Shown piece by piece: positions 1 to 61,316 of a stretch of DNA of 64,000 nucleotides. Position 1 is the first letter of the stretch. Each line of letters begins with the position of its first letter. Source of the stretch: Candidatus Omnitrophota bacterium (GTDB lineage Bacteria > Omnitrophota > Gorgyraeia > JAZDFF01); contig JAZDFF010000040.1 in NCBI GenBank assembly GCA_043808095.1, positions 1,908 to 65,907 on the forward strand, written 5' to 3'. The position numbers and the translations under genes are program-made. The notes below the pieces were generated by a model. The model was not told where the DNA came from. It did not search any database and was given only the letters and a program-made list of their open reading frames with translations.

Positions 1-149
1 GTGAGAATACCAACTTCTTTCTAAATCTCATCTTTTCCATTTATTTTCAATTATATTTTAAAACAAAACCCTACGCAAGTATTTTACTTACATAGGGTTA
101 TGTTTTAGTGGCTCCCCCGCGAGGACTCGAACCTCGGACATGGTGGTTA

Positions 150-510
150 CAAGTGACCCGAAATTGCTTTCGGACTTGGACTATCTCTTTACCATGACTA
201 ACGAAGCGGCTCCCTCGCTTTCGCTCGGGATAAAACTGTACTTCGTCCAGTTTTAGGTAGTGGGTGCATAGTCTCTGCACCTGCCTTCGCTAAAGCATCG
301 GCAGGCAAGCCTTCTGCCTGCTAGCCTCATGCGAGGATCGGCTCAGGATTACCCCAGCTGTTTCGTTTTGCTGCGCAAAAGCGAAACAAAACGACAGGGG
401 CTTCCCTGAATTCTCCCACAGTTTCAACTACGGTTTCCCGTAGAAGCTGCGCTTTGTAAGATCCTTCGGGTTTCGCCCTCAGGATGCTCGTCCGCCTTCG
501 GCGGACTCGC
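150..510 (-). ncRNA. Group I self-splicing intron (361 nt) in the anticodon loop of tRNA-Asn, between nt 35 and 36.
   Basis: The 5' exon ends in U and the intron ends in G (omega-G) immediately before the 3' exon. The conserved P7 core strands are present: GCAGAGACTA (R element) and AAGAGATAGTCC (S element). GNRA-type capped helices are also present. No ORF lies inside the intron. Confidence 0.75.
345..396 (-). repeat. A roughly 48-nt imperfect palindromic module (CCCCnGCTGnTTCGTTTTGCTnCGCAAAAGCGAAnCAAAACG..GGGG) inserted in a peripheral loop of the group I intron.
   Basis: A second copy lies at 43982..44033 in the same orientation and carries compensatory substitutions that preserve the hairpin. 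Confidence 0.6.
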
Positions 511-592
511 ACAGCCACCCGCTCTACCAACTGAGCTACAGGGGAATATTAAAAAATCAAATATCAAAAATCAAAAATAAAAATTATAAATA

Positions 593-3154: not shown

Positions 3155-4159
3155 CTAGTTATAAAAGCTCTGATAAGCCAAAAGTAAACGTTCGTTGTTA
3201 GAACCTATTTCTTTGAAATAACGTTTTATCTCTAATAAATCATAAATATAAACCCTATTTCCATTTTTTATTTTTGGCGTAAAACCTAAGTTTCTGAATA
3301 TCAGTACTACTGATTTGAATAAAGGTTTAGAACAATTCGTAAAACAAATTCTCAAATATCTATATTGCTTTTCGTTAATCTTGTATGTATGAAAATAAGT
3401 ACCGCCATCTGTATCCATAAGGCCTTTTAAACATGCCCGTTGAAATTCCTTATTTTTTTTAATCCAATTCGGAATATCAATCTTATTTCTGATTTTATCT
3501 CCTATTTTAAACCCCTGGCTATTTAAGAATTTCACTAATTCTACGCTTGAAACAATTATATCAGCTCCATTATTTCCTCTATTAATATGGCGTGTTGAAT
3601 CAAGTAAAAATAATTCTTTTATCAGTTTTGCACAATAATCAGAATAATTTTTATCTTTTATATTATTATATGATATTGCAATCTGGTATTTACTCTTAAC
3701 CCCTCCATCTCCCATAAATATGCCGATAAACTCAGCTAATTTAATAGAAGGAGACGGATAAGAAATTATTTTTTTTACCGTAACCCCAAATCTTTTAAAA
3801 TATTCCGGATTTGTTTTTATTAATTCTTGAGTAGTTAAGCCGCCCTTTTTTCTTCCTTCATAAGTACCCGGATTTCCATATAACTTAAGCCTGGCTTTAG
3901 CGCCTAATCTTCCGGCATTAGAAGAATTCCAAGATTCTGGTAGAAAATTAGCAGTTTTGGGTATTAAAATTCCCGTCAGTTTCTCTAACTTTAAGGCAGA
4001 TTCATAACTCATATTAAATTTTTCTCTTTCCCAATCACATAATGTCCTTGGGTGAATATTACAAATCTTGGTTATCCCGACCCGATGTTTAACTAATTTT
4101 GATTTATTCCTTATTATAAATTCTCTCTGTTTGCCCTTTGGAAATGATAATCTAGCCAT
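3155..4159 (-). CDS. Free-standing double-motif LAGLIDADG homing-endonuclease-like protein with an N-terminal HTH-like region.
   Basis: Two LAGLIDADG motifs are present: LAEFIGIFMGDGGV and ACLKGLMDTDGGTY. The stop codon lies 13 nt upstream of the 5' end of tRNA-Ser(GCU) on the same strand. Confidence 0.75.
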   Translation of the reverse strand: MARLSFPKGKQREFIIRNKSKLVKHRVGITKICNIHPRTLCDWEREKFNMSYESALKLEKLTGILIPKTANFLPESWNSSNAGRLGAKARLKLYGNPGTYEGRKKGGLTTQELIKTNPEYFKRFGVTVKKIISYPSPSIKLAEFIGIFMGDGGVKSKYQIAISYNNIKDKNYSDYCAKLIKELFLLDSTRHINRGNNGADIIVSSVELVKFLNSQGFKIGDKIRNKIDIPNWIKKNKEFQRACLKGLMDTDGGTYFHTYKINEKQYRYLRICFTNCSKPLFKSVVLIFRNLGFTPKIKNGNRVYIYDLLEIKRYFKEIGSNNERLLLAYQSFYN

Positions 4160-4713: not shown

Positions 4714-4760
4714 ATGCGCCCGGCTGGAATCGAACCTGCAACAACTTGCTCCGCCCCTCG
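4714..4760 (-). pseudogene. Degenerate 3' portion of a tRNA-Arg(ACG)-like gene: variable loop, T-arm and acceptor 3' strand.
   Basis: Reverse complement GGAGCAAGTTGTTGCAGGTTCGATTCCAGCCGGGCGCA aligns with positions 36-73 of the intact tRNA-Arg, with a mismatch in the T-stem. It is preceded by a CCTCG..CGAGG hairpin. Confidence 0.55.
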
Positions 4761-4800
4761 CTTTTACATTTAGCGGAATCCCGAGGTTTTATCAATAAAG

Positions 4801-4874
4801 TGCGCCTGGCTGGATTTGAACCAGCAACAACCAGCTCCGTAGGCTGATGCTCTATCCAGTTGAGCTACAGGCGC
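4801..4874 (-). tRNA. tRNA-Arg(ACG).
   Basis: Reverse complement: GCGCCTG TA GCTC AACTGGATA GAGC A TCAGC CTACGGA GCTGG TTGTT GCTGG TTCAAAT CCAGC CAGGCGC A. No CCA is encoded. Confidence 0.88.
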
Positions 4875-4899
4875 ATTAAAATTATTACAAATAACTAAC

Positions 4900-5092
4900 T
4901 CAGCTCGGGACGGAGTGCAAATAAAAACCGAGGGACTCCGTAGGCTGATGCTCTATCCTTCGCCGTAGGCGAATCCGCCTGCGGCGGAAATTGCCCGCCA
5001 CTAAAACTTTGCCGCCACAAATCTTAGGCGGCTCGCCAATGAATTGTGGCGAGGCGGGTCCGCCAATCTTTGTGGCGGAAGCTACAGGCGCA
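4900..5092 (-). pseudogene. tRNA-Arg(ACG)-like 5' portion carrying two inserts: a 120-nt insert in the D-loop and a 32-nt insert after the anticodon loop. It has no T-arm.
   Basis: Reverse complement: TGCGCCTGTAGCT [120-nt insert] GGATAGAGC A TCAGC CTACGG [AGTCCCTCGGTTTTTATTTGCACTCCGTCCCG] A GCTGA. The insert pairs with the anticodon (ACGGAGT/ACTCCGT), as pre-tRNA introns do. Confidence 0.55.
4960..5079 (-). repeat. A 120-nt multi-hairpin insertion element, copy 1. It is built from CCGCCA-loop-TGGCGG hairpins.
   Basis: It is near-identical (about 3 mismatches) to 16212..16331, and both copies interrupt the D-loop of a tRNA-Arg-like 5' fragment at exactly the same position. Confidence 0.7.
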
Positions 5093-5540: not shown

Positions 5541-5897
5541 GAATTTGTCGCGGTTTTCCCCTCGTCACTTCGTTCCTCGGGACTCCGCTCACTCCGTTCG
5601 CTTCGCGAGACCGCTAATTTGCCTTTGTTTAACCCATGCAAATTATCCCGAGATTATCGAGGGGCGCATTCGACCGCCCGCCATTAATACTTTGGCGGGC
5701 GTCCGCCTAAGTTTTAGTGGCGGACGCTCTGCCAACTCTCCAAAAATTTATTTCATGAATTTTTGGATCCTGAATCCCGATATAATCGGGATGAAAGATC
5801 TTTCAAAACTCTTGGCTTACCGTTCGGCTACCCTCGCTGCGTAGATCCTTCGCTTTCGCTCAGGATCCGATTTGCTTTCCATTAAGGGAGAAAAAAT

Positions 5898-7496: not shown

Positions 7497-7685
7497 GTGG
7501 CGGCGCCGCGCTCGCTGCGGCATCCGCCAAAATTTTCCTTGTCGGAAAAAGCATTAAGGGTGCGGCGCCGAAACACATTGTTTCGGCATCCGCCAAAATT
7601 TAAATTGGCGAAAAACATTAAGGTGGCGGGGCCGAAATACATTATTTCGGCATCCGCCAAAATTTAAATTAATTTAAATTTTGGC
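7497..7685. repeat. Three tandem copies of a roughly 64-nt unit, each carrying two hairpins (GCCGAAACA..TGTTTCGGC and GCCAAAATTTAAATTGGC), located immediately 3' of tRNA-Ser(GGA).
   Basis: The periodicity is directly visible. The last unit merges into the tRNA 3' end (..CTCTCCGCCAAAATT). Confidence 0.7.
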
Positions 7686-7769
7686 GGAGAGGGAGGGATT
7701 CGAACCCTCGGACCCTTGCGGATCACATGTTCTCCAGACATGCCGGTTAAACCACTCCCGAACCTCTCC
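7682..7769 (-). tRNA. tRNA-Ser(GGA), type II, with CCA encoded.
   Basis: Reverse complement: GGAGAGG TT CGGGAGTGGTTTAACCG G CATGT CTGGAGA ACATG + variable arm + GAGGGTTCGAATCCCTC CCTCTCC G CCA. Confidence 0.85.
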
Positions 7770-7842
7770 AAAAAATTGCTTTTTATTTTTTGGATTTCGA
7801 GTCCGCCAATGCTTTAATGGCGGACGAGAAATCTTAATTACC
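7770..7842 (-). promoter_or_regulatory. tRNA-proximal 5' element, copy directly upstream of tRNA-Ser(GGA).
   Basis: It is near-identical to 8201..8277 and 5985..6058. Confidence 0.5.
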
Positions 7843-8100
7843 TTTGATCAACGCTAATTTCTTCTTACGGCTAAATCTCTTTACCTCTAATTCTCTTTTC
7901 CTGGCTAAATTATAATTTTCACACAATTCTTTATGTAGCAAAATCAAGGGCTTGCGAAAACGCGTGTAACGACATTTATTCGAAGTATTATGTTCATGAA
8001 TACGTTGTTCTACATTTATGGAAATACCTACATATAAGGTGTTATCTCGACATTCTGCTATATAAACGTACCAGGGTTTAGAATAATTAACCTTAGCCAC
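7834..8100 (-). CDS. Small GIY-YIG nuclease-domain protein of the YhbQ/UPF0213 type.
   Basis: It has the motif block WYVYIAECRDNTLYVGISINVEQRIHEHN. It sits between two copies of an approximately 85-bp direct repeat. Confidence 0.75.
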   Translation of the reverse strand: MAKVNYSKPWYVYIAECRDNTLYVGISINVEQRIHEHNTSNKCRYTRFRKPLILLHKELCENYNLARKRELEVKRFSRKKKLALIKGN

Positions 8101-8182
8101 GAATTTATATTAGAAACTATCTAATTTAGATCTCTCACCATGACTGTGTCAGGGTTCGAGAACATTTTCGTTTATGCGAAAA

Positions 8183-8277
8183 TGTCCACTCCCGAACCTC
8201 TCCAAAAAATTGCTTTTTATTTTTTGGATTTCGAGTCCGCCAATGCTTTAATGGCGGACGAGAAATCTATTTTCCCT
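8183..8277 (-). repeat. Second copy of the tRNA-Ser(GGA) 5' end (GGAGAGGTTCGGGAGTGG) plus the tRNA-proximal element. Together with 7752..7842 it forms an approximately 85-bp direct repeat flanking the GIY-YIG gene.
   Basis: The sequence identity to 7752..7842 is directly visible. The tRNA fragment is followed by an unrelated hairpin (ACATTTTCG..CGAAAATGT) rather than a D-arm. Confidence 0.7.
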
Positions 8278-9070: not shown

Positions 9071-10396
9071 TTAAGATATCCTTTCCTTACCATCTAAATA
9101 TGGCCGCAATACTTCAGGGATAATCACCGCGCCGTCTTTCTGCTGGTAATTTTCTAAGATTGCTATCACGGTCCTTGCCAGGGCAATCCCTGAACCGTTT
9201 AAGGTATGCACAAAATCTATTTTTTTAGAATCCTTTCTTCTAAATCTTATATTCGCCCGACGGGCCTGGAAACTCTCTAAATTCGAGCAACTCGACACCT
9301 CAAGCCACTTGTCAATGCCCGCGGCATAGGCCTCAAGGTCATAGCACTTTCCGGCAGCAAAACTCAGGTCCTGTGTTGAAAGGGCAACTACCCTGTAAGC
9401 AAGGCCCAAGAGCTGTAAAACCTCCTCGGCATCTTTGACTAATTTTTCAAGCTCATCATAGGAAGTCTCGGGTTTTACGAATTTAACCAGCTCCACTTTA
9501 TCGAATTGATGCACGCGCATAAGGCCCTTGGTATCTTTCCCGTAAGAACCGGCCTCCCGCCTAAAACAGGCGGTATAGGCAGTGAGGTATTTGGGCAGGT
9601 CTTCTTCATTTAAGACCTCATCCCTGAATATGTTGGTAACCGGTACCTCAGCCGTAGGGATAAGAAATAAATCATCATCTTTTAACCGATACATATCTTC
9701 TTCTAATTTGGGAAGTTGTCCTGTCCCGGTCATTGATGCACGGTTAACCAAAAAAGGCGGAAAGACCTCAAGATATCCGTGTTTTCTGGTGTGTAAATCC
9801 AGCATAAAGTTAATAAGTGCGCGCTCTAATTTTGCGCCCCAGCCTTTAAAAAGGATAAAATTTGAGCCGGTAATCTTGGCGGCGCGGTTAAAATCAATGA
9901 TATCTAAGTGCTGGCTGATCTCTATATGAGTGACCGGCTTAAAATCAAATACAGGTTGCTTACCCCAGGAACGGATAACCTGATTTTTAGAAAGCCCCCC
10001 TACCGGCACAGATGTATGAGGCACATTAGGAATAATTAACAATAACTTATTAAATTCCTGGTCGGATTCTTTTAATTTGTCTTCCAGGGCGTCGATTTTT
10101 TCGGCGATGGTCTTCATTGAGGCGATTTTTGTTTTGGCATCCGCCTTCGCTGAAGCTTCGGCGGATAGTTCTTCGAAGCCTTGGCGAAGGAGAACATCCT
10201 TCTTCTCTTTCAATAACGCGGTGATCTCATCATTAGCCTTGTTCTTTTGGGCGCGCAGGGCCTCGACCTCATTTAAGGTTTTACGCCGGGAATCATCGAG
10301 CTTAATCAAACCTTCTAAATCAATTTTTAACCCGCGGTTTTTAATCGACTGCTTTACTAAATCCAAATTTTCCCGAATAAATTTTATGTCTAACAT
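9071..10396 (-). CDS. serS: Seryl-tRNA synthetase.
   Basis: It has the N-terminal coiled-coil arm and class II aaRS core motifs. It lies among four tRNA-Ser genes. Confidence 0.93.
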
Positions 10397-10485
10397 TTTA
10401 TCCTTTGATTACCCCCAATGGTCGCATCCTCCTTCGCTCTTTGATAAATTTTGTTGTCATTTTGACGAGCTTCGGAGGATTTCGT

Positions 10486-11949
10486 CTAGCCCTTTATTAC
10501 ACCTAAAGGCCTCATCCTGCAGACGCGTTTTGAAATGCCGGCATTATGCACTACATCTACCACATCATTTACATCTTTATAGGCCTGGGGCGCTTCTTCA
10601 ACAATAGTCCCCCGCCCGGTTGCCTTAACTGTAATGCCTTTTGATTCTAATTCCTTTAATAACGCACTCAAATCAATGGTTTTAAGCGCACCACTTCGGG
10701 ATTTAAGCCGGCCTGCGCCATGGCAGGTCGACCCGAAGGTCTCTTCCATTGCCTTTTGCGTACCCACTAAAAGATAGGAATTCCTGCCCATATCTCCGGG
10801 GATAATCACCGGCTGGCCGGTCTTTTTGTATCGGGCAGGTAATGCTGGATTTCCCGGGCCAAAGGCGCGCGTAGCGCCTTTTCTATGGATACATAGATTT
10901 TTCTCTTTACCGTCAACCGTATGCCTCTCCATCTTTGCGATATTATGGGCCACGTCATAAATTAAAAACATGCCCATATCCTGCCAGGAACGGTTAAAAA
11001 ACTTCTCAAATACCTCGCGGGTCAAATGCATCAGGCATTGCCGATTTGCCCAGGCGTAATTTGCCGCGCATCTCATGGCCCCAAAATAAGCCTTACCTTC
11101 GGACGAATTAACCGGAGCACAGGCAAGCTGCTTGTCCGGGACATTGATATTATATTTCGCCAGGCAATGAATCATGGTCTTGAGAGAGTCATCGCAGACC
11201 TGATAACCTAAGCCCCGTGAACCGGAATGTATCATAATCGTAATCTGGCCTTCGGTTAAGCCAAATTCATCGCAAAGATCGCGCTCATACAGCCGGTCAA
11301 TTACCTGGACCTCTATGAAATGATTTCCCGAGCCGAGTGTCCCGGATTGGGCCTTGCCTCTAACATAAGCCCTATCTGAAACTGCCGAAGGATCTGCTCC
11401 GGCAATTGCACCAAATTCTTCGGTACACTCTAAATCATCGCTAGTTCCGTAGCCTTTTTCAACCGCCCACTTTGCACCTTTTACTAAAATTTCTTTTTCT
11501 TCTCTGGTAGTGACCTTTATATCGCCTTTTGAACCTATACCTGTAGGTATGTCATTAAATAGGGCATAGACCAAATTCTTGATTTTATCTTTTATCTCAT
11601 CAAATTGAAAATTAGTTTTAAGGAGTCTTATCCCGCAATTTATGTCATAGCCCACGCCTCCGGGCGAAATTACTCCGCCTTCCTCAGGGTCAGTTGCCGC
11701 TACCCCTCCGATACAAAATCCATATCCCCAATGGATATCCGGCATAGCCAGGGAATAATTTACAATCCCCGGTAAAAATGCGACATTTGCCACCTGTTCC
11801 AGGGCTCTATCCTGGCGGATATCCTTTAGCAGTTTCTCATCGGCATAGATAATTCCCGGAACCCGCATTCCGGGTTTATAACTCTTGGGTATACGCCAAC
11901 GATAATCGTCAATCTTCTCTAATGGTACTTGCCCGATCTCAGACATCAA
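10486..11949 (-). CDS. rtcB: RNA-splicing ligase RtcB (3'-phosphate/5'-OH ligase).
   Basis: Conserved RtcB blocks are present: NCGIRLL, HSGSRGLG and CHGAGR. Confidence 0.92.
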   Translation of the reverse strand: MMSEIGQVPLEKIDDYRWRIPKSYKPGMRVPGIIYADEKLLKDIRQDRALEQVANVAFLPGIVNYSLAMPDIHWGYGFCIGGVAATDPEEGGVISPGGVGYDINCGIRLLKTNFQFDEIKDKIKNLVYALFNDIPTGIGSKGDIKVTTREEKEILVKGAKWAVEKGYGTSDDLECTEEFGAIAGADPSAVSDRAYVRGKAQSGTLGSGNHFIEVQVIDRLYERDLCDEFGLTEGQITIMIHSGSRGLGYQVCDDSLKTMIHCLAKYNINVPDKQLACAPVNSSEGKAYFGAMRCAANYAWANRQCLMHLTREVFEKFFNRSWQDMGMFLIYDVAHNIAKMERHTVDGKEKNLCIHRKGATRAFGPGNPALPARYKKTGQPVIIPGDMGRNSYLLVGTQKAMEETFGSTCHGAGRLKSRSGALKTIDLSALLKELESKGITVKATGRGTIVEEAPQAYKDVNDVVDVVHNAGISKRVCRMRPLGVIKG

Positions 11950-12364
11950 AAATCACCTCAGCCTGCCAACCTGATTTAAGTTCCCTTAATTGCAACTGGT
12001 GATAAGTAGCGGCCTTAATCTCAGTGTTTACTCTGTAATTATTCATATCTTCGCCAACGGCAGTTGCCTGCAGATTGTTTTTATCTAATTTTTCAATCTT
12101 AAAATCCGAGAAAATTAATTCTTTGGCGGCGGATAAAGAAAGTAATTCATTTAGCCAGTTTATGAAAAGCTCCTCTAAATTATCCGCCTTTTGTTTAACC
12201 GTGATATTTCTGGTATCTGGCATCTGGCATCTCGTATCTGGCTTTTTTTCAGCCATAATCTCAAACATTGCCGTGGCGGAATTTTTAAATAATTCTTTTA
12301 AATCTTTGGCCTTTACCCTGATACAGATATCGGCGGTGTGTTCGATTTGTTCGTAGTTTTTCAT
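11939..12364 (-). CDS. Archease, the RtcB activator.
   Basis: It has the N-terminal EHTADI motif. It overlaps the rtcB start as in archaeal and eukaryotic archease-RtcB pairs. It contains a short internal PDTR tandem duplication. Confidence 0.85.
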   Translation of the reverse strand: MKNYEQIEHTADICIRVKAKDLKELFKNSATAMFEIMAEKKPDTRCQMPDTRNITVKQKADNLEELFINWLNELLSLSAAKELIFSDFKIEKLDKNNLQATAVGEDMNNYRVNTEIKAATYHQLQLRELKSGWQAEVIFDV

Positions 12365-12503
12365 AACGCGAATTATCGCTAATCCCTGCCTGACGGTAGG
12401 CAGGAAACGCGAATTATCGTTAATATTATTAGCGTATATTTCCGCCGAAGGCGGATTAGCCTTTGGCTAAAGCGTTAGATTCGCGTAAATTAGCGTTTTT
12501 AAA

Positions 12504-12576
12504 TGAGCCGCGAAGGAATCGAACCTTCAACCCCCAGATTAAGAGTCTGATGCTCTACCGATTGAGCTAGCGGCCC
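12504..12576 (-). tRNA. tRNA-Lys(CUU).
   Basis: Reverse complement: GGGCCGC TA GCTC AATCGGTA GAGC A TCAGA CTCTTAA TCTGG GGGTT GAAGG TTCGATT CCTTC GCGGCTC A. Confidence 0.88.
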
Positions 12577-15804: not shown

Positions 15805-16011
15805 ACCCTCCTTGTTATCTTCTTATTGCTACTTGCTACTCTCTACTCGCTACTTTACTCTATCTGTGCCCATCTTGTATCTCTTAATCTGTGATAATCT
15901 GTGTATTAAAAATGCGCCTAGCTGGTCTGCTTCGCTCAAATGTTTTCACTTTGAGCTCCGCAGAACCATTTCTACGAAGCTCCCGCATAAAAATGTTGGA
16001 GCGAAGTAGAA

Positions 16012-16034
16012 TGCGCCTGGCTGGACTCGAACCA
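16012..16034 (-). pseudogene. tRNA-Arg(ACG)-like T-loop and acceptor 3' fragment (GGTTCGAGTCCAGCCAGGCGCA) abutting tRNA-Arg(UCG).
   Basis: It matches positions 52-73 of tRNA-Arg(ACG) at 4801..4874, with T-loop variation. Confidence 0.5.
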
Positions 16035-16041
16035 ATTAAAA

Positions 16042-16115
16042 CGCCCCTGGAGGGAGTTGAACCCCCAACGCCTAGCTCCGAAGGCTAGCGCTCTATCCAG
16101 TTGAGCTACAGGGGC
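16042..16115 (-). tRNA. tRNA-Arg(UCG).
   Basis: Reverse complement: GCCCCTG TA GCTC AACTGGATA GAGC G CTAGC CTTCGGA GCTAG GCGTT GGGGG TTCAACT CCCTC CAGGGGC G. Confidence 0.85.
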
Positions 16116-16344
16116 TACTAATTATATCGCGATATCCAGTTCCGTCCCTCGACTTCGCTCGGGATGGAATCCTGAGTTAAACGAAGGATTCCTAAGACTG
16201 GCGCTCTATCCTTCGCCGTAGGCGAATCCGCTTGCGGCGGAAATTGCCCCCACTAAAACTTTGCCGCCACAAATCTTAGGCGGCTCGCCAATGAATTGTG
16301 GCGAGGCGGGTCCGCCAATCTTTGTGGCGGAAGCTATAGGCGCA
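16116..16344 (-). pseudogene. Second tRNA-Arg-like 5' portion carrying the same 120-nt D-loop insert (16212..16331) and a roughly 50-nt insert in the anticodon-stem region.
   Basis: Reverse complement: TGCGCCTATAGCT [120-nt insert] GGATAGAGC G CCAGT CTTAGGA[..GGAATCC..GGATTCC..] ACTGG. The architecture is the same as at 4900..5092. Confidence 0.5.
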
Positions 16345-16346
16345 TA

Positions 16347-17066
16347 CTATATTATCTCGGTTTTATCACCTAAAATCTCTTGAATTTTCTCTAGCTTCTT
16401 TTTATCTACCGCAAGGATCCCCGACTCTGCGGCTACGCGTACCGGCGAATTTAACTGAATCTTATCGGGGTTTATCATATCAATGGCTTCTTTTAATTTC
16501 TTAATCTGCCTTATGTCATCATTTATGCCACTAACTAACATTACCTCAAGCCAGATTTTGCCCTTGAATTCTTTTCTTAGGCTCACTAGGCCTTGAATAA
16601 TACCATCAAGCTTCAAATTTAGCTCGGGTCTATCAATCTTTTGCCAGATAGATACGGACACCGCATCAAGCGAAGGTACGATTAAATCCGCGCCAAGTAA
16701 TTGACTGCGCACCGAAGCCTGACTCAAAAAAGAGGAATTGGTAATAACGGCAACCGGTATATTGACAATCCTTTTAATTTGAAAAATAAATTCTCCTATA
16801 TTTACATTTAAAGTCGGCTCGCCCGAGCCGGAAAGGGTAATGTAATTTACGGTTTTTTGAATCTCATTATTGGCGCCTAACCAGGCCTTTAATTCGTTTA
16901 AGATCTCTTCGATTTTAATATATTCTTTTCTCTCAGTAGTTTTATGAGTCGTATCGCCCAGCTGGCAATATATGCAGTCGAAGGTGCAGGTTTTATAAGG
17001 CGTAAGACTTACGCCTAATGATAGGCCGAGCCTGCGCGATTTAACCGGTCCGTAAATATATTTCAT
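16347..17066 (-). CDS. Radical SAM enzyme of unknown specificity.
   Basis: It has the CxxxCxxC cluster motif CTFDCIYCQ after a GPVxSRRLG N-terminus. Confidence 0.75.
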   Translation of the reverse strand: MKYIYGPVKSRRLGLSLGVSLTPYKTCTFDCIYCQLGDTTHKTTERKEYIKIEEILNELKAWLGANNEIQKTVNYITLSGSGEPTLNVNIGEFIFQIKRIVNIPVAVITNSSFLSQASVRSQLLGADLIVPSLDAVSVSIWQKIDRPELNLKLDGIIQGLVSLRKEFKGKIWLEVMLVSGINDDIRQIKKLKEAIDMINPDKIQLNSPVRVAAESGILAVDKKKLEKIQEILGDKTEII

Positions 17067-17070
17067 AAAT

Positions 17071-17140
17071 CACCAATTATCACGAATTACACACTAATTT
17101 CCACTAATTCATTTTGTGTAAATTTGTGTTTTCTGCCTGT
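17071..17140. promoter_or_regulatory. AATTNGTG / TTTGTGTAAATTTGTGT repeat array immediately 5' of the radical SAM gene.
   Basis: Similar arrays lie at 45518..45603, 54660..54751 and 61197..61300, each directly upstream of a gene start. A related CAGATTAGCACAGAT family lies at 13370..13440, 15855..15910 and 53085..53290. Confidence 0.4.
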
Positions 17141-29762: not shown

Positions 29763-30518
29763 TCACCTGTTCTTTTTTATTGGCTCATCTATAACTGAGC
29801 CATGTAAATAATTTGCTTGGAGAGTATTACTTCCGTCGTATTCTGCGATGATGTCTTCGTTGTCGTAGATATAGCGGGTAATTACTCCATTGACATTCTT
29901 TTCAATCCTTCTTCCTATGCCGTCGTAGGTGTACTCTGCAAAGGTTAAGTCAGGGAAGTCAATGCGGATTAACTGATTCTCGACATCGTAAGTATAGTTG
30001 GTAGTCTCTAAGGTAGATTTGTTCTGCTTAGAAATTAGATTCCCATTGTCATCATAGGCGTAAGTATAGTTATCATCTTCCAGTAGTCTATTGGCCTCAT
30101 CATAGACATAGGTTAAAGGATTGCGGTTACCTACTGGGTCATAGGTGTAGTTTTCAGTAGGAATTGTGGGGTGCGTAGCGCCGATTAGTCGGTATAAATC
30201 ATCATAGCCATAGTCGTGCAGGCCAGTTAAATCAGTCATATCTTCCCGGTTGCCGACGTTATCATAGGTGTAGGTGTATGAATTAATAGTAACCAGATTA
30301 CTGAGCACAGAAACCTGATTATCTGTAGATTCTAGATGCAAGATACCAGATGCTAGTTTATCTCTGGTGACCTTGTGACTTGGTGACGTGGTGACCAAGG
30401 TAAGTAATCTACTTGCTAAGTCGTAAGTGTAGGCGGTTTGAGTGCGATGAATAAGATGATAAAGGTAATAGCTATTGTCTAGGAGTTTATCGGTTGAGAT
30501 ATAGTTTAGGTCTTTCAT
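29763..30518 (-). pseudogene. Orphan internal Rhs/YD-repeat fragment, a diverged duplicate of part of the large rhs gene.
   Basis: Its protein aligns block-by-block with a roughly 250-residue internal region of the 31071..36635 product (YTYDxVGNRE..DLTGLHDYGYDDLYRL..DEPI). Shared DNA stretches include TTCTAGATGCAAGATACCAGAT. Confidence 0.75.
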
Positions 30519-30551
30519 AGATTATTTCGTAATTTAATATGATTTAAGGAG

Positions 30552-31061
30552 TTATCGCGTTCTGACACTGTTTTTTCTGTTTTTTATTTTGTAAAACTTT
30601 AATATTGGCACCAAAAGAAATTTAAATAACTTCAATGCCTTAAATAATCTACTAGTTAAAAAAACTTTCTTGGTAATCTCTTTACTATATTGTTCAGCGG
30701 TCTTTTCCCAACCTTCTTTTTTATAACCATGACCTATTCTCTGAACATGATGACCTATTTCGTGAAAGAGCGTAGTTGCAAGTAATAATTTAGGAATTAT
30801 TGGAAAAATAATAAAAAAAATCCGAGGCATCTTGTAGAACATCCCAGATACATTTAGAACTATCTCTATATTTTTAGCATTTTGATATCCATAATAGAGA
30901 CCCGCAGCATCTTTAACATTTCTCTCTACAGGATAGTCAATTATTGTTATTTTATTTATTTTATACAAATCCTCTTGAGGGACAAATTTGAGTAATTCTT
31001 CAATGTTTTTTCTAAAGTTAAATTTTATACTTTTGTCTAGATTAATGATCTCAATTATCAT
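30552..31061 (-). CDS. Small HExxH-motif protein (LFHEIGHHV) immediately downstream of the rhs gene. It may be an Rhs-associated immunity or accessory protein.
   Basis: The HEIGHH motif is visible. The position relative to the Rhs C-terminal tip is the only other support. Confidence 0.45.
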   Translation of the reverse strand: MIIEIINLDKSIKFNFRKNIEELLKFVPQEDLYKINKITIIDYPVERNVKDAAGLYYGYQNAKNIEIVLNVSGMFYKMPRIFFIIFPIIPKLLLATTLFHEIGHHVQRIGHGYKKEGWEKTAEQYSKEITKKVFLTSRLFKALKLFKFLLVPILKFYKIKNRKNSVRTR

Positions 31062-31070
31062 CTCTGCTAA

Positions 31071-34000
31071 TTAAATTCCAAACACATGACTTAACCATTC
31101 AGCTATATCATCAATCAGTTTTTTCCATTTATCAGGCGGAAGTGGAGGAATAGGATTATGAGTAGCAGGTATCGTTGGTGGAATTTTGTAATATCCTGTC
31201 CTTTTACCTTTACCAGCTCCAGGATATGGTTCAGGTGAAGGGCCTTTAATAGCTTGATACAAAGCGTATCCACCAACTGCGGCAATAATAGCAACTTTCC
31301 CAAACTGTGTAGGTTCGGATAATGCCATTGTCGTACCAACAATAATCCAAGGAGGCATACACATTACGTTACCATAAGGATCGACATAAATTACAGGATT
31401 ATTTAACACATAGGGATAAAGGTTTAATGTGAGGGAATTAGTAAGAAAACCTTTAAACGAGTCTTCCTGCAAAAACCTCCCTATCCTCGCATCATAATAC
31501 CTGGCTCGATAGTAATACAAGCCTGTTTCAGAGTCGAATTCACGTCCAGTATAGGTAAACGGATTAGACAGTGTGCCGGTTTGGTTTACGATATTGCCAA
31601 AGGAATCATAGGTATACGTTCGCACTACAGCGCCGGTATTGTCTGTCAGAGCTGTTATACTGCCTAAGCCATCTACGTGATAGTAGTAAAGTTGTCCTCC
31701 CCTCTCCATCCTCAATGGCTCATCTATCCCAGGGCCGTGGAGGTATTTGGCGGTTAGGGTGTTGGTTACATCATATTCAGCAAGGATATCCTCGTTGTCG
31801 TAGACATAGCGAGTAATTACTTCATTTACATTCTTTTCGATTCTTCTGCCGAGGCCATCATAAATATAGTCAATAGTCGATGGTCCATAGTCAATAGAAA
31901 TTAACTGATTCTCGACATTGTAACCATAGGTAGTAACATCTGACGGATTGCTCTTATTGGTTTTAGTGATAAGGTTGCCGTTGTCGTCATATATATAGGT
32001 ATAAGTCCCATCGTCTACCAGTCGATTAGCGACATCGTAAACAAAACTTGCCGGATTGCGGTTACCCACTGGGTCATAGGTGTAGTCTTCAGTCGGGAAG
32101 GTCGGATGAGTTGCCTGAGTTAGTCTATATAAATCATCATAGCCATAGTCATGCAGGCCGGTTAAATCAGTCATCTCTTCCCGGTTACCGACAGAGTCGT
32201 AGGTGTAGGTGTAAGAGTCAAGAGTTGATTGTGTATCTTTAGATTCTAGATGCAAGATACCAGATACTAGTTTATTGTGTGATTTGGGATTTAAACTTGT
32301 TACCATACTTAACAGCCGGCTGGCCAAGTCGTATCCGTAGGCAGTCTGGGTATTGTTGGCTAAGATTAAGGCAGTCCTGCGAGAAAGCTGGTCATAACCA
32401 AAATGACTAATCAGTTGATCAGCGGCGGTCTTGATGTCGATGAGACGGTTTAGGTCATCATAAATATACTTGGTAACAACTGATTGAGGGTCAGTTAAAG
32501 TAAGGCGATTAGAGTTTTTATCATAGGTATAGCTGATAGTAGTGGCTGGCTGATGTCCCAAATTCGCAGTGGTTGCTTGAGTGAGTCTACCAGCTAAATC
32601 ATAATTCATTGTCAGGCCTGAATCAGGATTGGTTACTGAGGTCAGATTATTTACAGAGTCATAACCATTGGTTACATTTAGACCTGGCCCGGATTTGTTA
32701 GTCAGACGGTTTATCTGGTCATAGGTAAAGCTAATGGTTTGGCCTTTAAAGTCAATGACAGTCCCTAAGTTTCTATTTAAGTCATAGCTAAAGGTCTTGG
32801 TCTTGGTTAGAGGGTTAGCGATGGTTTTAAGCTGGTTTATTTCATCATAAGTAAAGTTTGTTTCGTGGAGTTTCGAATCAATGATTTTTTTCAGGCTCCC
32901 TGCCTCATCGTATTGATACTGGGTAGTTTTATTATCAGCATCTACTACTTTTTTCAGGCGGTTCATTGAGTCGTATTCAAAGGTAGTGGTATTGTTGTCG
33001 GCATCAGTTGAGGAAGTAATGTTACCGGCGTTATCATAGGCCAGGGTAGTGGTATGGCTTAAGGGGTCAGTAATGGTTAAGAGATTTTCTGTAACCGGGT
33101 CATAGGTAAAATTAGTCTCATTTTGAAGCGGGGTGCCAAAGCCAGAGATAATCTTAGACAGAAGCGAATAAGGACTATTATACTCCATCTTGGTAATATT
33201 GCCAAGGGCATCGGTTATCTGGATGGGATTTCCTTTTGTGTCATAATCAATATCAGTAAGATTAGATTCTGGGTCTAAGATGCTAGATACTTGATTAAAG
33301 TTCGGCTCATAGGTAAAGGTAGTGGTGGCGGAGATTGCATTCTCAGTTGAGGTCCGCAGATTACCTTTAGCATCATAAGTCATGGTTACTGTAGAGCTGT
33401 TAGGCCGGGTAATTTTTGTGGGATTATTATTTACGTCCCTTTCGATTGTGGTAGTCTGATTTAAGGCATCAATAATTTTTGCATAAGAGCCGAATTTTGA
33501 GGTCTGGGAGGTGGTTGTGTAGCCTTTGCCGTCGATAATCGTTTCTACGATATCAGCCGGCCGCACTACCGGTGCGGGATTCTGTGGTGTGCCTACACCA
33601 GGCGCTAAATCATTAATCAGGCCTTGCACTTCAGAAGGAAAAAACTGAATTATCTCCTGAGGGCTATTTGGAAAAAGCATCCGATTTACCCGGCCATAAT
33701 TATCATATTGGTATTGGGTGGTGAGATTCCGCTCATTGGTAGCGGCAGTTAAAAAATGACTATTATAGGTAAATGCCTTGGTAGTAGTGTCTGGATTAGT
33801 TATTCCGGATAGGTCGCCACTGGCATCAATGTTAAACTGAGTAATTCTACCTGCAGGGTCTTTTATGGATTGGAGCTTGCCTGATGTATTATAGATAAAT
33901 TCATATTTGCCGCCAGCAGGTAAAATAATCTCACTTATCTCTTCGGCTCTTCCGTCAGAATTGGCATCTATATAAATATATTGCGTAGTGTTGCCATTTC

Positions 34001-36643: not shown

Positions 36644-38029
36644 TTACCTTTTTGATTTTAATCTTTTGCTGGTTAGCCGGGAAATCTTTTTCTTTAAGAC
36701 CCTTGCCGGAACGCCTACTACAACCGAATAATCTTTAACATTACAACCGGCAGTCACTACGCTTCCTGCTCCGGTTACTGCTTTTTTCCCGACTTTTACC
36801 GGTGCAACTAAAACCGTATCCGAGCCGATAAAAGCGCCTTTTCCGATTTTAGTTACATTTTTCTTACGGCCGTCGTAATTTGCGGTAACAGTGCCTGCCC
36901 CGATGTTAACACTATCTCCTACCTTGGCGTCGCCAAGATAGCTGAAATGCCTTACCTTAGTAAACCTGCCGACTCGCGTGCGGTTCAGTTCCGTAAAATT
37001 TCCGATTGAGGCATCATCTTCTAAGACCGTGCCCGGCCGGAGATGGCTAAAAGGCCCGACGGAACAACGGCGACCGATAACTACATCGTGCTCTATAAAG
37101 GTATAGGGATAAATTACAGAATTCCCGCCAATCTTCACATTCGGATAAATATATGTATTATTGGGGTCTAAGATGTTTACGCCTTTTTCTATAAACCCAA
37201 CCAAAATTCTGCGGCGGATTATATCAGAGGCCTTGTTTAAATCTTCTCTCGTATTAACACCTTGGGCCTGGGTATCGTCTTCTATCCTTAACGCCTGGAT
37301 GTGATAACCCTGACTGTCAAGGCACTCGATTATATCCGTAAGATAATATTCCTTTTTCTGCTCGTTAAGTTTAATATGGCCCAGATTGGAAAATAAGACG
37401 TCCTTCTTAAAGCAGTATACGCCTGTGTTTATCTCGTTTATGCGTTTTTGTTCCGGCGAAGCGTCTTTCTCTTCGACGATCTTTTTGACATCATTATTTT
37501 TGTCTCTGATAATCCTACCGTAACCGGCAGGGTCACCAACCAAGGCAGTCAATAACGTGCAAGCGGCTCTGGTATTAGAGTGGACTTCAATAAGCGAAAA
37601 TAAAGTTTCTTTCCTTATCAGAGGATGGTCTCCGTAGAAGATTAGCACATCCGAAGCATCCTTCTTAAAAAGTCCGGCCGTCGCTTTTATAGCATCAGCT
37701 GTACCTAAAAGCCTCCTCTGAAGGCAAAGCCTTATATCTTTTTTCTTTTGATAATTTTTAATAAATACTTTAACTAAATCTTTTTTATAACCGATAACAA
37801 GAATAATCCTTTTTAATTTGCGGGTGGCGCTTAACAGGTCCAGGATATAGCCTAACATAGGCTTGCCAAAAATAGGCTGAAGGACCTTCGGGATTCCGGA
37901 TTTAAGTCTTGTGCTTTTGCCTGCTGCTAAAACAATTGCATCTAGATCTTGCATTTTAAAAACCTGATACCTAAGAGTTGATTTGTATATTTTAAAAAGT
38001 TGCCCGGTCTGGACTCTTAATGAGACCAC
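36644..38029 (-). CDS. glmU: Bifunctional GlcNAc-1-P uridyltransferase / GlcN-1-P acetyltransferase GlmU.
   Basis: It has an N-terminal nucleotidyltransferase domain (LAAGKSTRLKSGIPKVL) and a C-terminal hexapeptide acetyltransferase domain. The true start is probably the internal MQDLDAIV (about 37954), because the annotated N-terminus overlaps the family-A UTR repeat. Confidence 0.88.
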   Translation of the reverse strand: MVSLRVQTGQLFKIYKSTLRYQVFKMQDLDAIVLAAGKSTRLKSGIPKVLQPIFGKPMLGYILDLLSATRKLKRIILVIGYKKDLVKVFIKNYQKKKDIRLCLQRRLLGTADAIKATAGLFKKDASDVLIFYGDHPLIRKETLFSLIEVHSNTRAACTLLTALVGDPAGYGRIIRDKNNDVKKIVEEKDASPEQKRINEINTGVYCFKKDVLFSNLGHIKLNEQKKEYYLTDIIECLDSQGYHIQALRIEDDTQAQGVNTREDLNKASDIIRRRILVGFIEKGVNILDPNNTYIYPNVKIGGNSVIYPYTFIEHDVVIGRRCSVGPFSHLRPGTVLEDDASIGNFTELNRTRVGRFTKVRHFSYLGDAKVGDSVNIGAGTVTANYDGRKKNVTKIGKGAFIGSDTVLVAPVKVGKKAVTGAGSVVTAGCNVKDYSVVVGVPARVLKKKISRLTSKRLKSKR

Positions 38030-38141
38030 AACTTACGGAGCGTTAACGAACGTAAGTTGTCTGGTCGAATTAATCCCGAGTCCGCCATTGATTCAGTGGC
38101 GGACGAGGGAGAACCAGAACATTTATTTATGGTAAATTTAG

Positions 38142-38213
38142 TTGCCCGGTCTGGACTCGAACCAGAAAAGCGAGACCCAAATTCTCGTGTGTTACCAATT
38201 ACACTACCGGGCA
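38142..38213 (-). tRNA. tRNA-Gln(UUG).
   Basis: Reverse complement: TGCCCGG TA GTGT AATTGGTA ACAC A CGAGA ATTTGGG TCTCG CTTT TCTGG TTCGAGT CCAGA CCGGGCA A. The U1:A72 pair is typical of bacterial tRNA-Gln. Confidence 0.82.
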
Positions 38214-38645: not shown

Positions 38646-38755
38646 GGCTAGCCCTCCTTATCCAAACCAAACGCAAATCTTGCTTCCTTCGCTTAACCCA
38701 ATAAACAATCCTCAAGCGAAGTCGAAGGATCTCATTTGTTGACAAAGATTTAGCG

Positions 38756-41611: not shown

Positions 41612-41824
41612 TTTATTTACTGATAATTATTCTCAAACGCGAATTTTCGCCAATCAAACGCAAATAGTCGCTAATTTTATTCGCGACCATTAGCGTTCCC
41701 GCCACAAAGATTGGCGGGTCCGCCTCCGCCATAATAATTGGCGGATGCGCCAATATTTGTGGTGCAAAAGAATTGTGGCGGAAGATTCGCGACCATTAGC
41801 GTTAAGAAGATTTTTTCAAAGTAT

Positions 41825-45514: not shown

Positions 45515-45603
45515 CTTTACACTAATTTACACTAATCAAACACTGATATTCACGAATATTTTATTTGTGTTTATTCGTGTGCAATTTGTGGTAATTCGTG
45601 ATT

Positions 45604-54635: not shown

Positions 54636-54751
54636 ACTTTATCTGTAAGACTAGCGAGAAAATCATTTTGGCACGAATCTACACGAACCACACACAAATT
54701 TTCACGAATAAATTCGTGTAAATTAGGCTCTTAATTCGTAGGAATTCGTGT

Positions 54752-61219: not shown

Positions 61220-61316
61220 TAATTACACACGAATTCCCACCAATAAAATTCGTGTAAATTTGTGTGAAATTTGTGTTCATTTGTGTAGAAATATTGTTTT
61301 TAAACAGTTTAAATCT

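Follow-up and report, generated by a model that had tools for sequence, protein, structure and literature searches.

Why should an intact tRNA gene lie among the scattered pieces of another one? This question is raised by a locus in a 64,000-nt stretch of Omnitrophota DNA, which we call the window. Fragments of an outer tRNA-Arg gene are found there surrounding an intact tRNA-Arg(UCG), at positions 16343-15913 of the minus strand (locus 2). A companion, locus 1 (4715-5091, minus strand), is found at the tRNA-Arg(ACG)/TadA position. The nested arrangement of locus 2 is real and non-random, and its best explanation is that small mobile elements which colonise tRNA genes have left their footprint there, not that it is a composite functional precursor. 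It is fairly probable that locus 2 is a resident tRNA-Arg(UCG) gene which was broken by successive insertions of small mobile elements, and was replaced by the complete tRNA-Arg(UCG) now found inside it.

We have called tRNA genes with ARAGORN, RNA families with Rfam and protein domains with Pfam. The loci used for comparison were fetched from metagenome or genome contigs and are labelled L001-L202. Eighty metagenome loci were fetched with a radical-SAM profile, further loci by exact-protein look-up, and the closest ~25 have been compared. The contigs L001-L109 have exact matches to a 19-nt hairpin, CCGCCACAAAGATTGGCGG, in the GTDB species-representative genomes (596 Gb). The window contains eight tRNA genes according to ARAGORN, every one on the minus strand, and it encodes housekeeping proteins such as DnaX, RecR, TadA, LpxC-FabZ, LpxI, DnaB, SSB and ribosomal proteins. 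It comes from a metagenome-assembled genome (MAG): Its radical-SAM and TadA proteins have 100% identity to proteins of an NCBI "Candidatus Omnitrophota" MAG, and those of the nearest other relatives are ~70% and ~85% identical to them.

Position and anatomy of the nested loci

Locus 2 follows a radical-SAM gene (16347-17066, minus strand; Pfam PF04055), which we have used as a synteny anchor and whose homologues carry the JGI label "wyosine synthetase-like". All features of the locus are on the minus strand. The outer 5' piece starts 2 nt past the stop codon of the radical-SAM open reading frame (ORF): It corresponds to nt 1-12 of the relic tRNA-Arg (GCGCCTATAGCT, 16332-16343), which include the 5' strand of the acceptor and the start of the D-stem, and it is identical to nt 1-12 in L117. 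D-loop nt 13-17 are replaced by a 120-nt GC-rich hairpin cluster (16212-16331). Then come nt 18-33 (GGATAGAGC-G-CCAGT-CT, 16195-16211), with the rest of the D-arm, the 5' strand of the anticodon stem and the first two loop bases. The anticodon loop is interrupted by a second insert (16145-16194). It is formed by TAGGAA, which is the left copy of the anticodon region, derived from TCGGAA, and by a 44-nt element, TCCTTCG...CGAGGGA, which holds the hairpins GGAATCC/GGATTCC and TCCCGAGCGAAGTCGAGGGA. The right copy of the duplicated loop bases, CGGAA, is found together with the 3' strand of the anticodon stem, ACTGG (16136-16144).

A 20-nt AT-rich spacer (ATATCGCGATATAATTAGTA, 16116-16135) leads from the relic anticodon stem to the inner tRNA. 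It has TATAAT 7 nt before the tRNA and no full promoter match. The intact inner tRNA-Arg(UCG) (16042-16115) is called by ARAGORN and by Rfam (RF00005, 64.2 bits), and it is presumed to be the functional replacement gene. The segment which contains it sits between the anticodon stem and the T-arm of the outer gene, separate from the 44-nt element. It is followed by TTTTAAT and by TTGGTTCGAGTCCAGCCAGGCGCA (16012-16035), a proximal fragment with the T-arm and the 3' strand of the acceptor, where the 5' strand of the T-stem is damaged and C66 is mismatched to the outer A7. An 86-nt long hairpin (15926-16011, folding at -39.7 kcal/mol) is flanked by a 13-nt direct repeat, CCAGCYAGGCGCA, whose copies are found at 16012-16024 and 15913-15925. 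The second copy coincides with a distal acceptor fragment, CCAGCTAGGCGCA (15913-15925). Since T66 of the distal fragment is the pairing partner of the outer A7, this fragment is where the resident gene originally ended on its 3' side, before the 86-nt hairpin displaced it. The outer gene is broken at at least four sites: the D-loop, the anticodon loop, the region from the anticodon stem to the T-arm, and the 3' end. All the pieces described in the initial annotation are present on the minus strand. It had limited the locus to 16344-16012, where they are found as described; the locus runs farther in the 3' direction, to 15913, with the 86-nt hairpin and the second acceptor fragment.

Apart from the inner tRNA, Rfam gives nothing for locus 2 at E<=10. 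The matches to "mir-49", "Sr006" and "Plastid-ycf2" at the locus are sub-threshold and reflect a mere hairpin or tRNA-antisense shape, so we have rejected them. Promoter and terminator consensus scans of both Arg loci gave nothing usable. There is no ORF inside 15913-16343 or 4715-5091, so neither Arg insertion contains a nuclease ORF.

The outer gene had been described as ACG-like in the initial annotation, an assignment which we have had to change. A plain tRNA-Arg(UCG) gene is found ~5 nt after the radical-SAM stop codon in 13 of the ~25 syntenic contigs (L114, L115, L117, L118, L120-L125, L127-L129). Its start is 13-20 nt into a segment whose first base lies 10 nt before the radical-SAM match ends. 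The outer 5' piece of the window has exactly the position of these uninterrupted genes. In addition, three parts of the outer gene, namely nt 1-12, the anticodon arm (CCAGT/ACTGG) and the T-loop, agree with those of the resident genes in L117, L118, L120, L123 and L124. Because of this position and of these matches, the outer pieces are the remains of the resident tRNA-Arg(UCG) and not of a tRNA-Arg(ACG).

Locus 1 has a similar layout, with all its parts on the minus strand: nt 1-12 of the relic (5091-5080), a 121-nt hairpin cluster (5079-4959), nt 18-41 of the relic (4958-4936), a 5' arm (4935-4875), an intact tRNA-Arg(ACG) (4874-4801), a 3' arm (4800-4755) and the 3' half of the relic (4754-4715). 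In relatives, a plain tRNA-Arg(ACG) precedes TadA by ~45 nt, and tRNA-Ser(GCU), DnaX and RecR come next; the 3' relic of locus 1 occupies the position of this tRNA-Arg(ACG) before TadA. By the criterion of position, loci 1 and 2 are two different ancestral tRNA-Arg genes, each of which appears to have been invaded.

The D-loop inserts of locus 2 and of locus 1 (4959-5079) are 98.3% identical when both loci are aligned, with one substitution and one indel of 1 nt. The initial annotation had estimated ~97% for this shared ~120-nt insert. Identity falls to only ~68-70% in the adjoining tRNA-like and insert sequences, and the outer flanks show no relationship. The window contains the motif GCGCCTRTAGCT-N(110-130)-GGATAGAGC at exactly two places, and none of 100 shuffles contains it. 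A segmental duplication, which had been mentioned as an alternative origin, has been rejected: The flanks are unrelated and each locus is found at its own ancestral position. The same two facts bear out the claim that this is not random decay. Another candidate which we have discarded is GCTGA in locus 1 as an anticodon stem analogous to CCAGT/ACTGG. It is a coincidence, as GCTGA aligns to a hairpin loop of locus 2, and an apparent compensatory change in the anticodon stem between both loci has been dropped along with it.

Gene order on both sides of locus 2 is the same as in relatives, LpxC-LpxA-LpxI-radical-SAM on one side and TPR...tRNA-Lys-Archease-RtcB-SerRS on the other, and the order TadA-tRNA-Ser-DnaX-RecR is conserved 3' of locus 1. 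On the 5' side of locus 1, the upstream 97-aa ORF is not similar to its positional counterpart in L198, so that synteny of this locus is confirmed on the 3' side only. A nested tRNA-Arg of the same kind is found in two independent assemblies, L111 and L112. The nested architecture is not an assembly artefact.

Two neighbouring features should be mentioned. A cluster with tRNA-Lys(CUU), Archease, RtcB and seryl-tRNA synthetase (9071-12576, minus strand) lies a few kb from the tRNA-Arg(UCG) locus; it is conserved, and also found in L111 and L113. RtcB (579 bits) and Archease (129 bits) are located at 10486-12364. On the side of locus 1, a 334-aa ORF with a LAGLIDADG_3 domain (3155-4159, minus strand) is found between TadA and tRNA-Ser(GCU). 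The relatives L194-L199 do not have it, TadA being followed directly by the tRNA, and we have seen no tRNA fragment upstream of this ORF.

The inserted elements and other tRNA relics

The anticodon-loop insert is common to locus 2, locus 1 and L111/L112. A 7-bp inverted repeat forms its ends (TCCYTCG...CGAGGGR), and the five loop bases 35-39 (CGGAR) are duplicated, with one copy on either side of it. The two copies of the duplication match at 4/5 positions in locus 2, 5/5 in locus 1 and 4/5 in L111, a comparison of three copies only. The L111 insert, of ~215 nt, is located in the anticodon loop of a flawless outer tRNA-Arg with every stem paired, and it encloses a complete tRNA-Arg(UCG) of a different allele between a second inverted pair, TCCCGAG/CTCGGGA. 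The arm motifs of L111/L112 (AGTCCCTCG...TCCCGAGC and CTCGGGAT...GCGAGGGGCGGAG) are the same as those of locus 1, where they enclose tRNA-Arg(ACG). In locus 2 the element has only 44 nt, and in L121 only the 3' arm and a decayed 3' half are left. As the arms of the window loci are only ~68% identical, while the D-loop clusters are 98% identical, the anticodon-loop insertion is old and the D-loop cluster young. Inverted ends with a short duplication are, as a sequence pattern, the signature either of an element similar to miniature inverted-repeat transposable elements (MITEs) or of a recombinase core site, which are indistinguishable here. No transposase cognate to this element is found among the window ORFs we have scanned. 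Related hairpins are located at 38683-38732, 5846-5865 and 211-230. The left copy of the loop bases and the beginning of the element together make a hairpin, which shows compensatory changes in the three copies: TCGAGTC/GACTCGA, CGGAGT/ACTCCG and GGAATCC/GGATTCC.

The core of the D-loop cluster is a ~70-nt palindrome which goes from CCGCCACAAA to TTTGTGGCGG, with 10-bp inverted ends, and which is followed by two further hairpins. The cluster folds at -55 to -64 kcal/mol, with a z-score of -3.9 to -5.5, and does not correspond to any Rfam family at E<=10. A third, diverged copy (41697-41788, plus strand; 77% identical over 93 nt) is found away from tRNA genes, in the intergenic region between two housekeeping genes, with the 19-nt direct repeat ATTCGCGACCATTAGCGTT on both sides. 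It is inserted into one of several ~59-nt intergenic units of the plus strand (17071-17129, 41638-41696, 45520-45578, 54672-54730 and 61207-61265), which are characterized by CACNAAT/CGCNAAT heptamers ~10 nt apart and a short hairpin at the end. The full-length 120-nt element is not present in any of 200 fetched loci, where only its first hairpin or partial look-alikes of 70-80 nt (for example, in L040) have been detected.

This first hairpin, CCGCCACAAAGATTGGCGG, has a much wider distribution. There are at least 109 exact copies among the matches listed, when ~4 would be expected by chance in 596 Gb. Most of the matches listed correspond to Omnitrophota; others are found in Thermodesulfobacteriota, in Scalindua and other Planctomycetota, in Binatia, in Chlorobiaceae and elsewhere. 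In many cases it opens a series of CCGCC/GGCGG hairpins, and the repeat family built around it differs from genome to genome. Only 9 of the 109 listed copies are within 600 nt of a tRNA. L025 (434-797, minus strand) has a genuine RNase P RNA of bacterial class A (164.6 bits), and the hairpin is part of a 52-nt insertion in one of its terminal loops, in the P12 region. In L089 (3456-3643, plus strand) the hairpin lies within the 188-nt span of a weak match to the c-di-GMP-I riboswitch (36.5 bits). This suggests that such palindromes are tolerated in loops of functional RNAs. Since most of the listed copies are away from tRNAs and one is found in RNase P RNA, the D-loop element appears to be a small insertion element of palindromic type, which is not linked to tRNA-Arg by its nature.

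The layout of a tRNA fragment, a GC-rich palindrome and an intact tRNA is recurrent, and it is also found at Ser, Pro, Ala, Leu, Phe, Lys and Gln genes. Relics in related genomes almost always have a GC-rich palindrome in the D-arm (L113, L116, L120, L124, L126, L131, L004 and L073). It is found between nt 17 and 18 in L113 and L116, and after T12 in L120, as in the window. In L004, L073, L126 and L131, a duplication of 12-15 nt of the tRNA 5' end surrounds a hairpin insert of 40-60 nt, and an intact gene is regenerated. Upstream of tRNA-Lys, 5' relics are found as well in L073, L114, L123 and L130. Considering the 81 tRNA genes in all the DNA we have gathered, a set with a partial bias, some of its loci having been chosen through the hairpin or the nuclease, 15 have a copy of their own first 12 nt (<=1 mismatch) within 700 nt upstream, compared with 2 in the wrong-side control, and 8 have a copy of their 3' end downstream, compared with 0.

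Other tRNA genes of the window show similar features. A class-II tRNA-like 5' relic (GGAGAGTTGGCAGAGC ... GGTCGAATGCGC; 5664-5741, minus strand) is found upstream of an intact tRNA-Ser(CGA); it has two CCGCC-type D-loop hairpins (5725-5676) and its own promoter-like leader. At 38000-38213 (minus strand), tRNA-Gln(UUG) is followed by a ~125-nt hairpin-rich insert, TCCCTCG-TCCGCCA...TGGCGGA-CTCGGGA, and by a 17-nt repeat of its own 3' end (38016-38000), a layout which resembles the 3' end of locus 2. The tRNA-Ser(GGA) gene (7769-7682) belongs to a larger cassette (7682-8277, minus strand), in which a GIY-YIG ORF (8100-7834, 88 aa; PF01541, E=2e-16) lies between the intact gene and a 92-nt duplicate (8277-8186), which covers the upstream region and tRNA nt 1-18. 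The two copies of this duplication are 96% identical. Immediately downstream of this tRNA there are three tandem hairpin units of ~65 nt (GGCGGATGCCGAAA...TTTCGGC; 7518-7680).

GIY-YIG genes have also been found in other genomes; the PF01541 matches for the cassettes have E=2e-16 and 2.5e-15. The orthologous Arg locus of L113 consists of tRNA-Arg nt 1-17, a 25-nt palindrome, nt 18-31, a GIY-YIG ORF and an intact tRNA-Arg(UCG). L074 has the same series of relic, palindrome, ORF and intact tRNA at a tRNA-Pro gene, where the palindrome consists of the CCGCCACAAAGATTGGCGG hairpin itself and of a copy of it in inverted orientation. In L050 (Planctomycetia) a GIY-YIG cassette is found at tRNA-Ala, with the palindrome after T12 as in the window. 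We have also chosen homologues of the L113 protein blind to their context: The three for which DNA is available (L200-L202, from three further MAG contigs) adjoin a tRNA-Leu gene and a second, full or partial, copy of it, with the palindrome CTGCCTGCCGGCAGGCAGG in the D-arm or the T-loop of the second copy. The source names are Cytophagaceae for P0252 (L201) and Melioribacteraceae for P0249 (L202). In L201 the second tRNA-Leu(CAA) is full-length and is interrupted solely by a 19-nt perfect palindrome, CTGTCTGCCGACAGGCAGG. In total, 7/7 of these GIY-YIG genes, which code for ~80 amino acids, are part of the architecture relic-palindrome-ORF-intact tRNA, in at least four phyla. In the literature we have searched, neither nested bacterial tRNA genes nor GIY-YIG/palindrome cassettes at tRNA D-arms are described. 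The cassette formed by GIY-YIG gene, palindrome and target duplication, as well as the 19-nt hairpin shared across phyla, appear to be undescribed.

Two further observations on the window concern regions away from these loci. Internal repeats at 29763-32475, 72-76% identical and with a spacing of 1935 nt, connect an RHS-repeat ORF (29763-30518) with the start of a 1854-aa ORF (31071-36635). The sign of the GC skew flips locally across ~30-36 kb.

The state of the outer genes and the explanations weighed

Could the outer pieces still give rise to a tRNA? When the inserts are removed in silico, ARAGORN calls both window relics tRNA-Arg, with anticodon ACG in locus 2 and GCG in locus 1. Under a splicing reading, the outer-exon junctions of locus 2 would be GCGCCTATAGCT/GGATAGAGC (GCT|GGATAGAGC) and CT/ACGGAACTGG (CT|ACGGA). 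In the reassembled tRNA of locus 2, A7.C66 is a mismatch, another one is found in the T-stem, where the 5' strand is damaged, and nt 13-17 are missing. That of locus 1 has two adjacent mismatches in the anticodon stem and one in the T-stem. The window relics carry mutated anticodon copies, and the outer anticodons are redundant with those of intact genes. In relatives, relics are progressively truncated (L113, L116, L120, L121 and L124).

A relaxed scan for the bulge-helix-bulge (BHB) motif, in the form hBHBh', gave 38, 29 and 16 matches, compared with shuffle means of 30, 32 and 13, and none of them is at a cloverleaf-compatible boundary. A possible boundary, CT|...GAGGG|ACGGA, fits the group I rule (5' exon ending in U, intron ending in G) in locus 2, locus 1 and L111, which by itself is a weak indication. 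There is no match to the Rfam family Intron_gpI in 15850-16400 at E<=10; at the gathering threshold, the only match in the window is at 157-468. It corresponds to a tRNA-Asn(GUU) gene (109-545, minus strand), which is split at 35/36 by a 361-nt group I intron (510-150) and which gives 61.8 bits over 157-468. The product spliced in silico is called tRNA-Asn(GUU), and the unspliced gene is missed by ARAGORN and by the Rfam tRNA model. As this intron is found in the same window, it serves as a positive control for the Intron_gpI model. The intron mode of ARAGORN reported no outer tRNA, even in the perfect L111, and is hence uninformative. No splicing endonuclease (EndA/Sen) was seen among the window ORFs examined. 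From the stem mismatches, the lack of BHB or group I features, the redundant anticodons and the truncated relatives, we infer that the outer genes are non-functional pseudogenes.

The favoured explanation, successive insertions into resident genes, may be described in three steps. An inverted-repeat cassette would have entered the anticodon loop of each resident tRNA-Arg, bringing a spare tRNA-Arg or accompanied by one, so that the host would lose nothing. The disabled outer halves would then have drifted, and locus 2 would have gained the insertion with the present inner gene, as well as the 86-nt hairpin with its 13-nt duplication. More recently, both relics would have received the 120-nt cluster at one common D-arm site, T12|G18. 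This site is part of the conserved sequence of tRNAs: It might be favoured by the elements in general, with insertions persisting only in dead copies. We suppose that families of elements home to conserved tRNA-gene sequences, either by a nuclease break repaired from the donor or by MITE-like transposition. An insertion would survive in three settings only: when a duplication of the target regenerates the tRNA, when a replacement gene comes with it, or when the gene which it enters is a relic already dead. Survival only in such settings would explain why the same recent D-loop cluster is found in both Arg relics. As a GIY-YIG gene is present in seven other cassettes, the two Arg loci of the window are probably, by analogy, ORF-less versions of them, decayed or non-autonomous. 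Only the inner tRNA would be expected to mature, by means of RNase P and RNase Z, and the outer pieces would be leader and trailer debris. The engine may be the GIY-YIG nuclease, a trans-acting transposase or a recombinase.

Several observations weigh against this explanation. The outer tRNA of L111 is flawless, and the reassembled window relics are still called as tRNAs. No nuclease, transposase or integrase is found at either Arg locus or in the ORFs examined from 0 to 54.6 kb, except for the GIY-YIG and LAGLIDADG ORFs. The link between hairpin clusters and GIY-YIG genes is one of association, and the majority of hairpin copies lack a GIY-YIG neighbour. The 80-aa GIY-YIG protein has no DNA-binding domain, so that sequence-specific homing is a supposition, and an intact tRNA beside the nuclease gene would keep the presumed target. 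The duplications which flank the inserts go from 5 to 92 nt, beyond any single known transposition mechanism. Finally, the junction hairpin covaries with the anticodon region in three copies, which could reflect selection at the RNA level. This covariation is the main observation which leaves an RNA-level role open, and we have no DNA-level explanation for it.

Other explanations have also been weighed. The loci might be scars of attachment (att) sites, produced by tyrosine-recombinase elements which integrated repeatedly in the anticodon loop, the D-arm and the T-arm; internal deletion would have left duplicated tRNA ends and remnants, and TCCCTCG/CGAGGGA around the duplicated core of 5-6 nt would be the recombinase core site. 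We consider this unlikely, while recognizing its merits. Direct repeats of tRNA 3' ends, the classical signature of tRNA integration, flank the inserts in L116, L122, L142, L074, the window tRNA-Gln and 15913-16024 of the window, and the anticodon-loop element does consist of inverted repeats around a duplicated core. There is also an ORF similar to a tyrosine-recombinase C-terminus in L196 (1-434) and L197 (1-165), which ends ~70 nt upstream of the 5' end of tRNA-Arg(ACG). Their sister contigs L194/L195 are identical downstream and differ upstream from the tRNA 5' end onward, which suggests integration on the 5' side of the tRNA. Nevertheless, this ORF belongs to another genome, and no integrase is found among the annotated or scanned ORFs of the window. 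The inserts have merely 40-350 nt, and the genes inside such inserts are GIY-YIG nucleases in 7/7 cases. Formation of attL and attR does not yield a whole tRNA between two halves, and D-arm insertion points vary (12/13, 15, 17/18, 19), which is not what a site-specific recombinase would produce. Local duplication by slippage, with palindromes which stall replication, and template switching which makes partial tandem copies of tRNAs that later decay, appears quite improbable; the hairpins would be its cause or mere passengers. It would account for the highly variable duplication lengths (5, 12-19 and 92 nt), for the predominance of palindromes in the inserts and for the lack of a transposase. 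It does not account for a 120-nt cluster 98% identical at loci 11 kb apart whose flanks are ~70% identical, for an identical 19-nt hairpin in many phyla, or for GIY-YIG genes recurring at the same architectural place. Besides, inner and outer tRNAs are different alleles and not tandem copies.

A functional nested precursor, the composite precursor proposed in the initial annotation, is disfavoured by the damaged and redundant outer genes, and we think it very unlikely. Outer and inner tRNA would share one transcript, from which RNase P and RNase Z would free the inner tRNA. An unknown endonuclease or ribozyme would trim the two outer halves, which the conserved arm helices would keep in contact, and RtcB-Archease would join them. 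The perfect stems of the outer tRNA in L111/L112, the ARAGORN calls for insert-free sequences, the compensatory changes of the junction hairpin in three copies, the Archease-RtcB pair conserved a few kb from tRNA-Arg(UCG) and the presence of the same hairpin family in RNase P RNA are in its favour. If it were true, this would be the first protein-dependent tRNA splicing in Bacteria, without a BHB motif, and the window copies would be decaying examples. To set against this, BHB-like motifs are not above the shuffled level and none has a fitting boundary, there is no group I signal from a model which does find the tRNA-Asn intron, the outer anticodons are already supplied by intact genes, and the window relics have mismatched stems, no nt 13-17 and mutated anticodon copies. 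The truncated relatives are those that decay predicts. RtcB is not known to join the ends left by RNase P and RNase Z. As for a mis-assembly across the shared 120-nt repeat, we give it next to no weight. The window does come from a MAG, and its two loci share ~100 nt of near-exact sequence; even so, gene order agrees with that of relatives on both sides of locus 2 and on the 3' side of locus 1, and nested or relic architectures recur in independent assemblies. The initial annotation had also considered a mobile tRNA-derived unit which targets tRNA-Arg genes. Mobile DNA which targets tRNA genes is indeed the best explanation. The elements are not derived from tRNA, and they are not specific for Arg: The layout is also present at the genes of seven other amino acids. 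The first hairpin is found in heterogeneous, mostly non-tRNA contexts in other genomes, an outcome which the initial annotation had named as a refutation, and which counts against tRNA specificity.

Comparison with known systems

The proposed insertion of mobile elements in resident tRNA genes may be compared with several known systems. Free-standing GIY-YIG homing endonuclease genes are known from the seg family of phage T4, with SegB in the T4 tRNA gene cluster (PMC2988022, PMC13096335). As in T4, we have found a small GIY-YIG gene among or within tRNA genes, local duplication or gene conversion, and a target whose function is preserved. The seg proteins have ~200-250 aa and a DNA-binding domain, whereas those detected here have ~80-90 aa and consist of the catalytic domain alone. 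Moreover, our genes are chromosomal, they belong to bacteria of several phyla, and they are always located between a palindrome-bearing relic and an intact copy of one tRNA gene. At locus 2 no nuclease gene is left.

Group I introns are found in anticodon loops of bacterial tRNAs (PMC3984707, PMC13011429), and the same 35/36 position in tRNA-Asn(GUU) has been reported for Patescibacteria (PMC13011429). The Arg inserts resemble them in being located in the anticodon loop after a U, and the tRNA-Asn intron of the window shares the hairpin TCCCGAGCGAAAGCGAGGGA with an Arg insert. Unlike group I introns, the Arg inserts have 44-215 nt and no group I core. The archaeal tRNA introns spliced by proteins are also similar in some aspects: Interruptions are found at the D-loop, the anticodon loop and the variable/T region, and near-identical inserts at the same position of two genes resemble intron transposition in Thermoproteales. 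The differences are a bacterial host, the lack of a BHB motif, outer genes which are damaged and redundant, and an insert which contains a whole tRNA gene. We know of no splicing endonuclease in this lineage.

Tyrosine-recombinase elements reportedly insert in tRNA genes at anticodon-loop and T-loop sublocations, as Williams is said to have described in Nucleic Acids Research in 2002. Our loci agree with these integrative elements in the use of the anticodon loop and T-arm as targets, in the presence of a tRNA end as a direct repeat and in the restoration of tRNA function. They differ in that the inserts have tens to hundreds of nt and no integrase, duplications on the 5' side or in the D-arm are common, and a whole replacement tRNA is found between the two halves, instead of one half being replaced.

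Small palindromic insertion elements are well known: MITEs, repetitive extragenic palindromic (REP) sequences and bacterial interspersed mosaic elements (BIME), the Rickettsia palindromic elements and the mobile GC clusters of yeast mitochondria. The elements described here are also short GC-rich palindromes with many copies per genome, located in intergenic DNA and in tolerated loops of structured RNAs (the P12 region of RNase P RNA, and possibly the c-di-GMP-I riboswitch), and one of them has inverted ends and a short target duplication. On the other hand, no RAYT or other transposase has been identified, the duplications at the flanks are of unusual length and variability, one and the same 19-nt hairpin is found across phyla, and there is an enrichment in the D-arms of relic tRNAs.

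In summary, tRNA genes are classical landing sites for mobile DNA, and the usual picture is that of large integrase-bearing islands at their 3' end. In Omnitrophota and at least three other phyla, tRNA genes appear to be colonised by units of very small size, namely GC-rich palindromes, mini-elements with inverted repeats and GIY-YIG genes of 80 aa. Our results suggest an undescribed selfish cassette, formed by a minimal GIY-YIG nuclease, a palindrome and a target duplication. About 1/4 of the tRNA genes in the sampled DNA have relics, which affects the annotation of tRNAs in MAGs, where genes may be missed or spurious. These small units would persist by means of target duplication or a spare tRNA, and would leave behind nested and fragmented pseudo-tRNAs such as those of the window.

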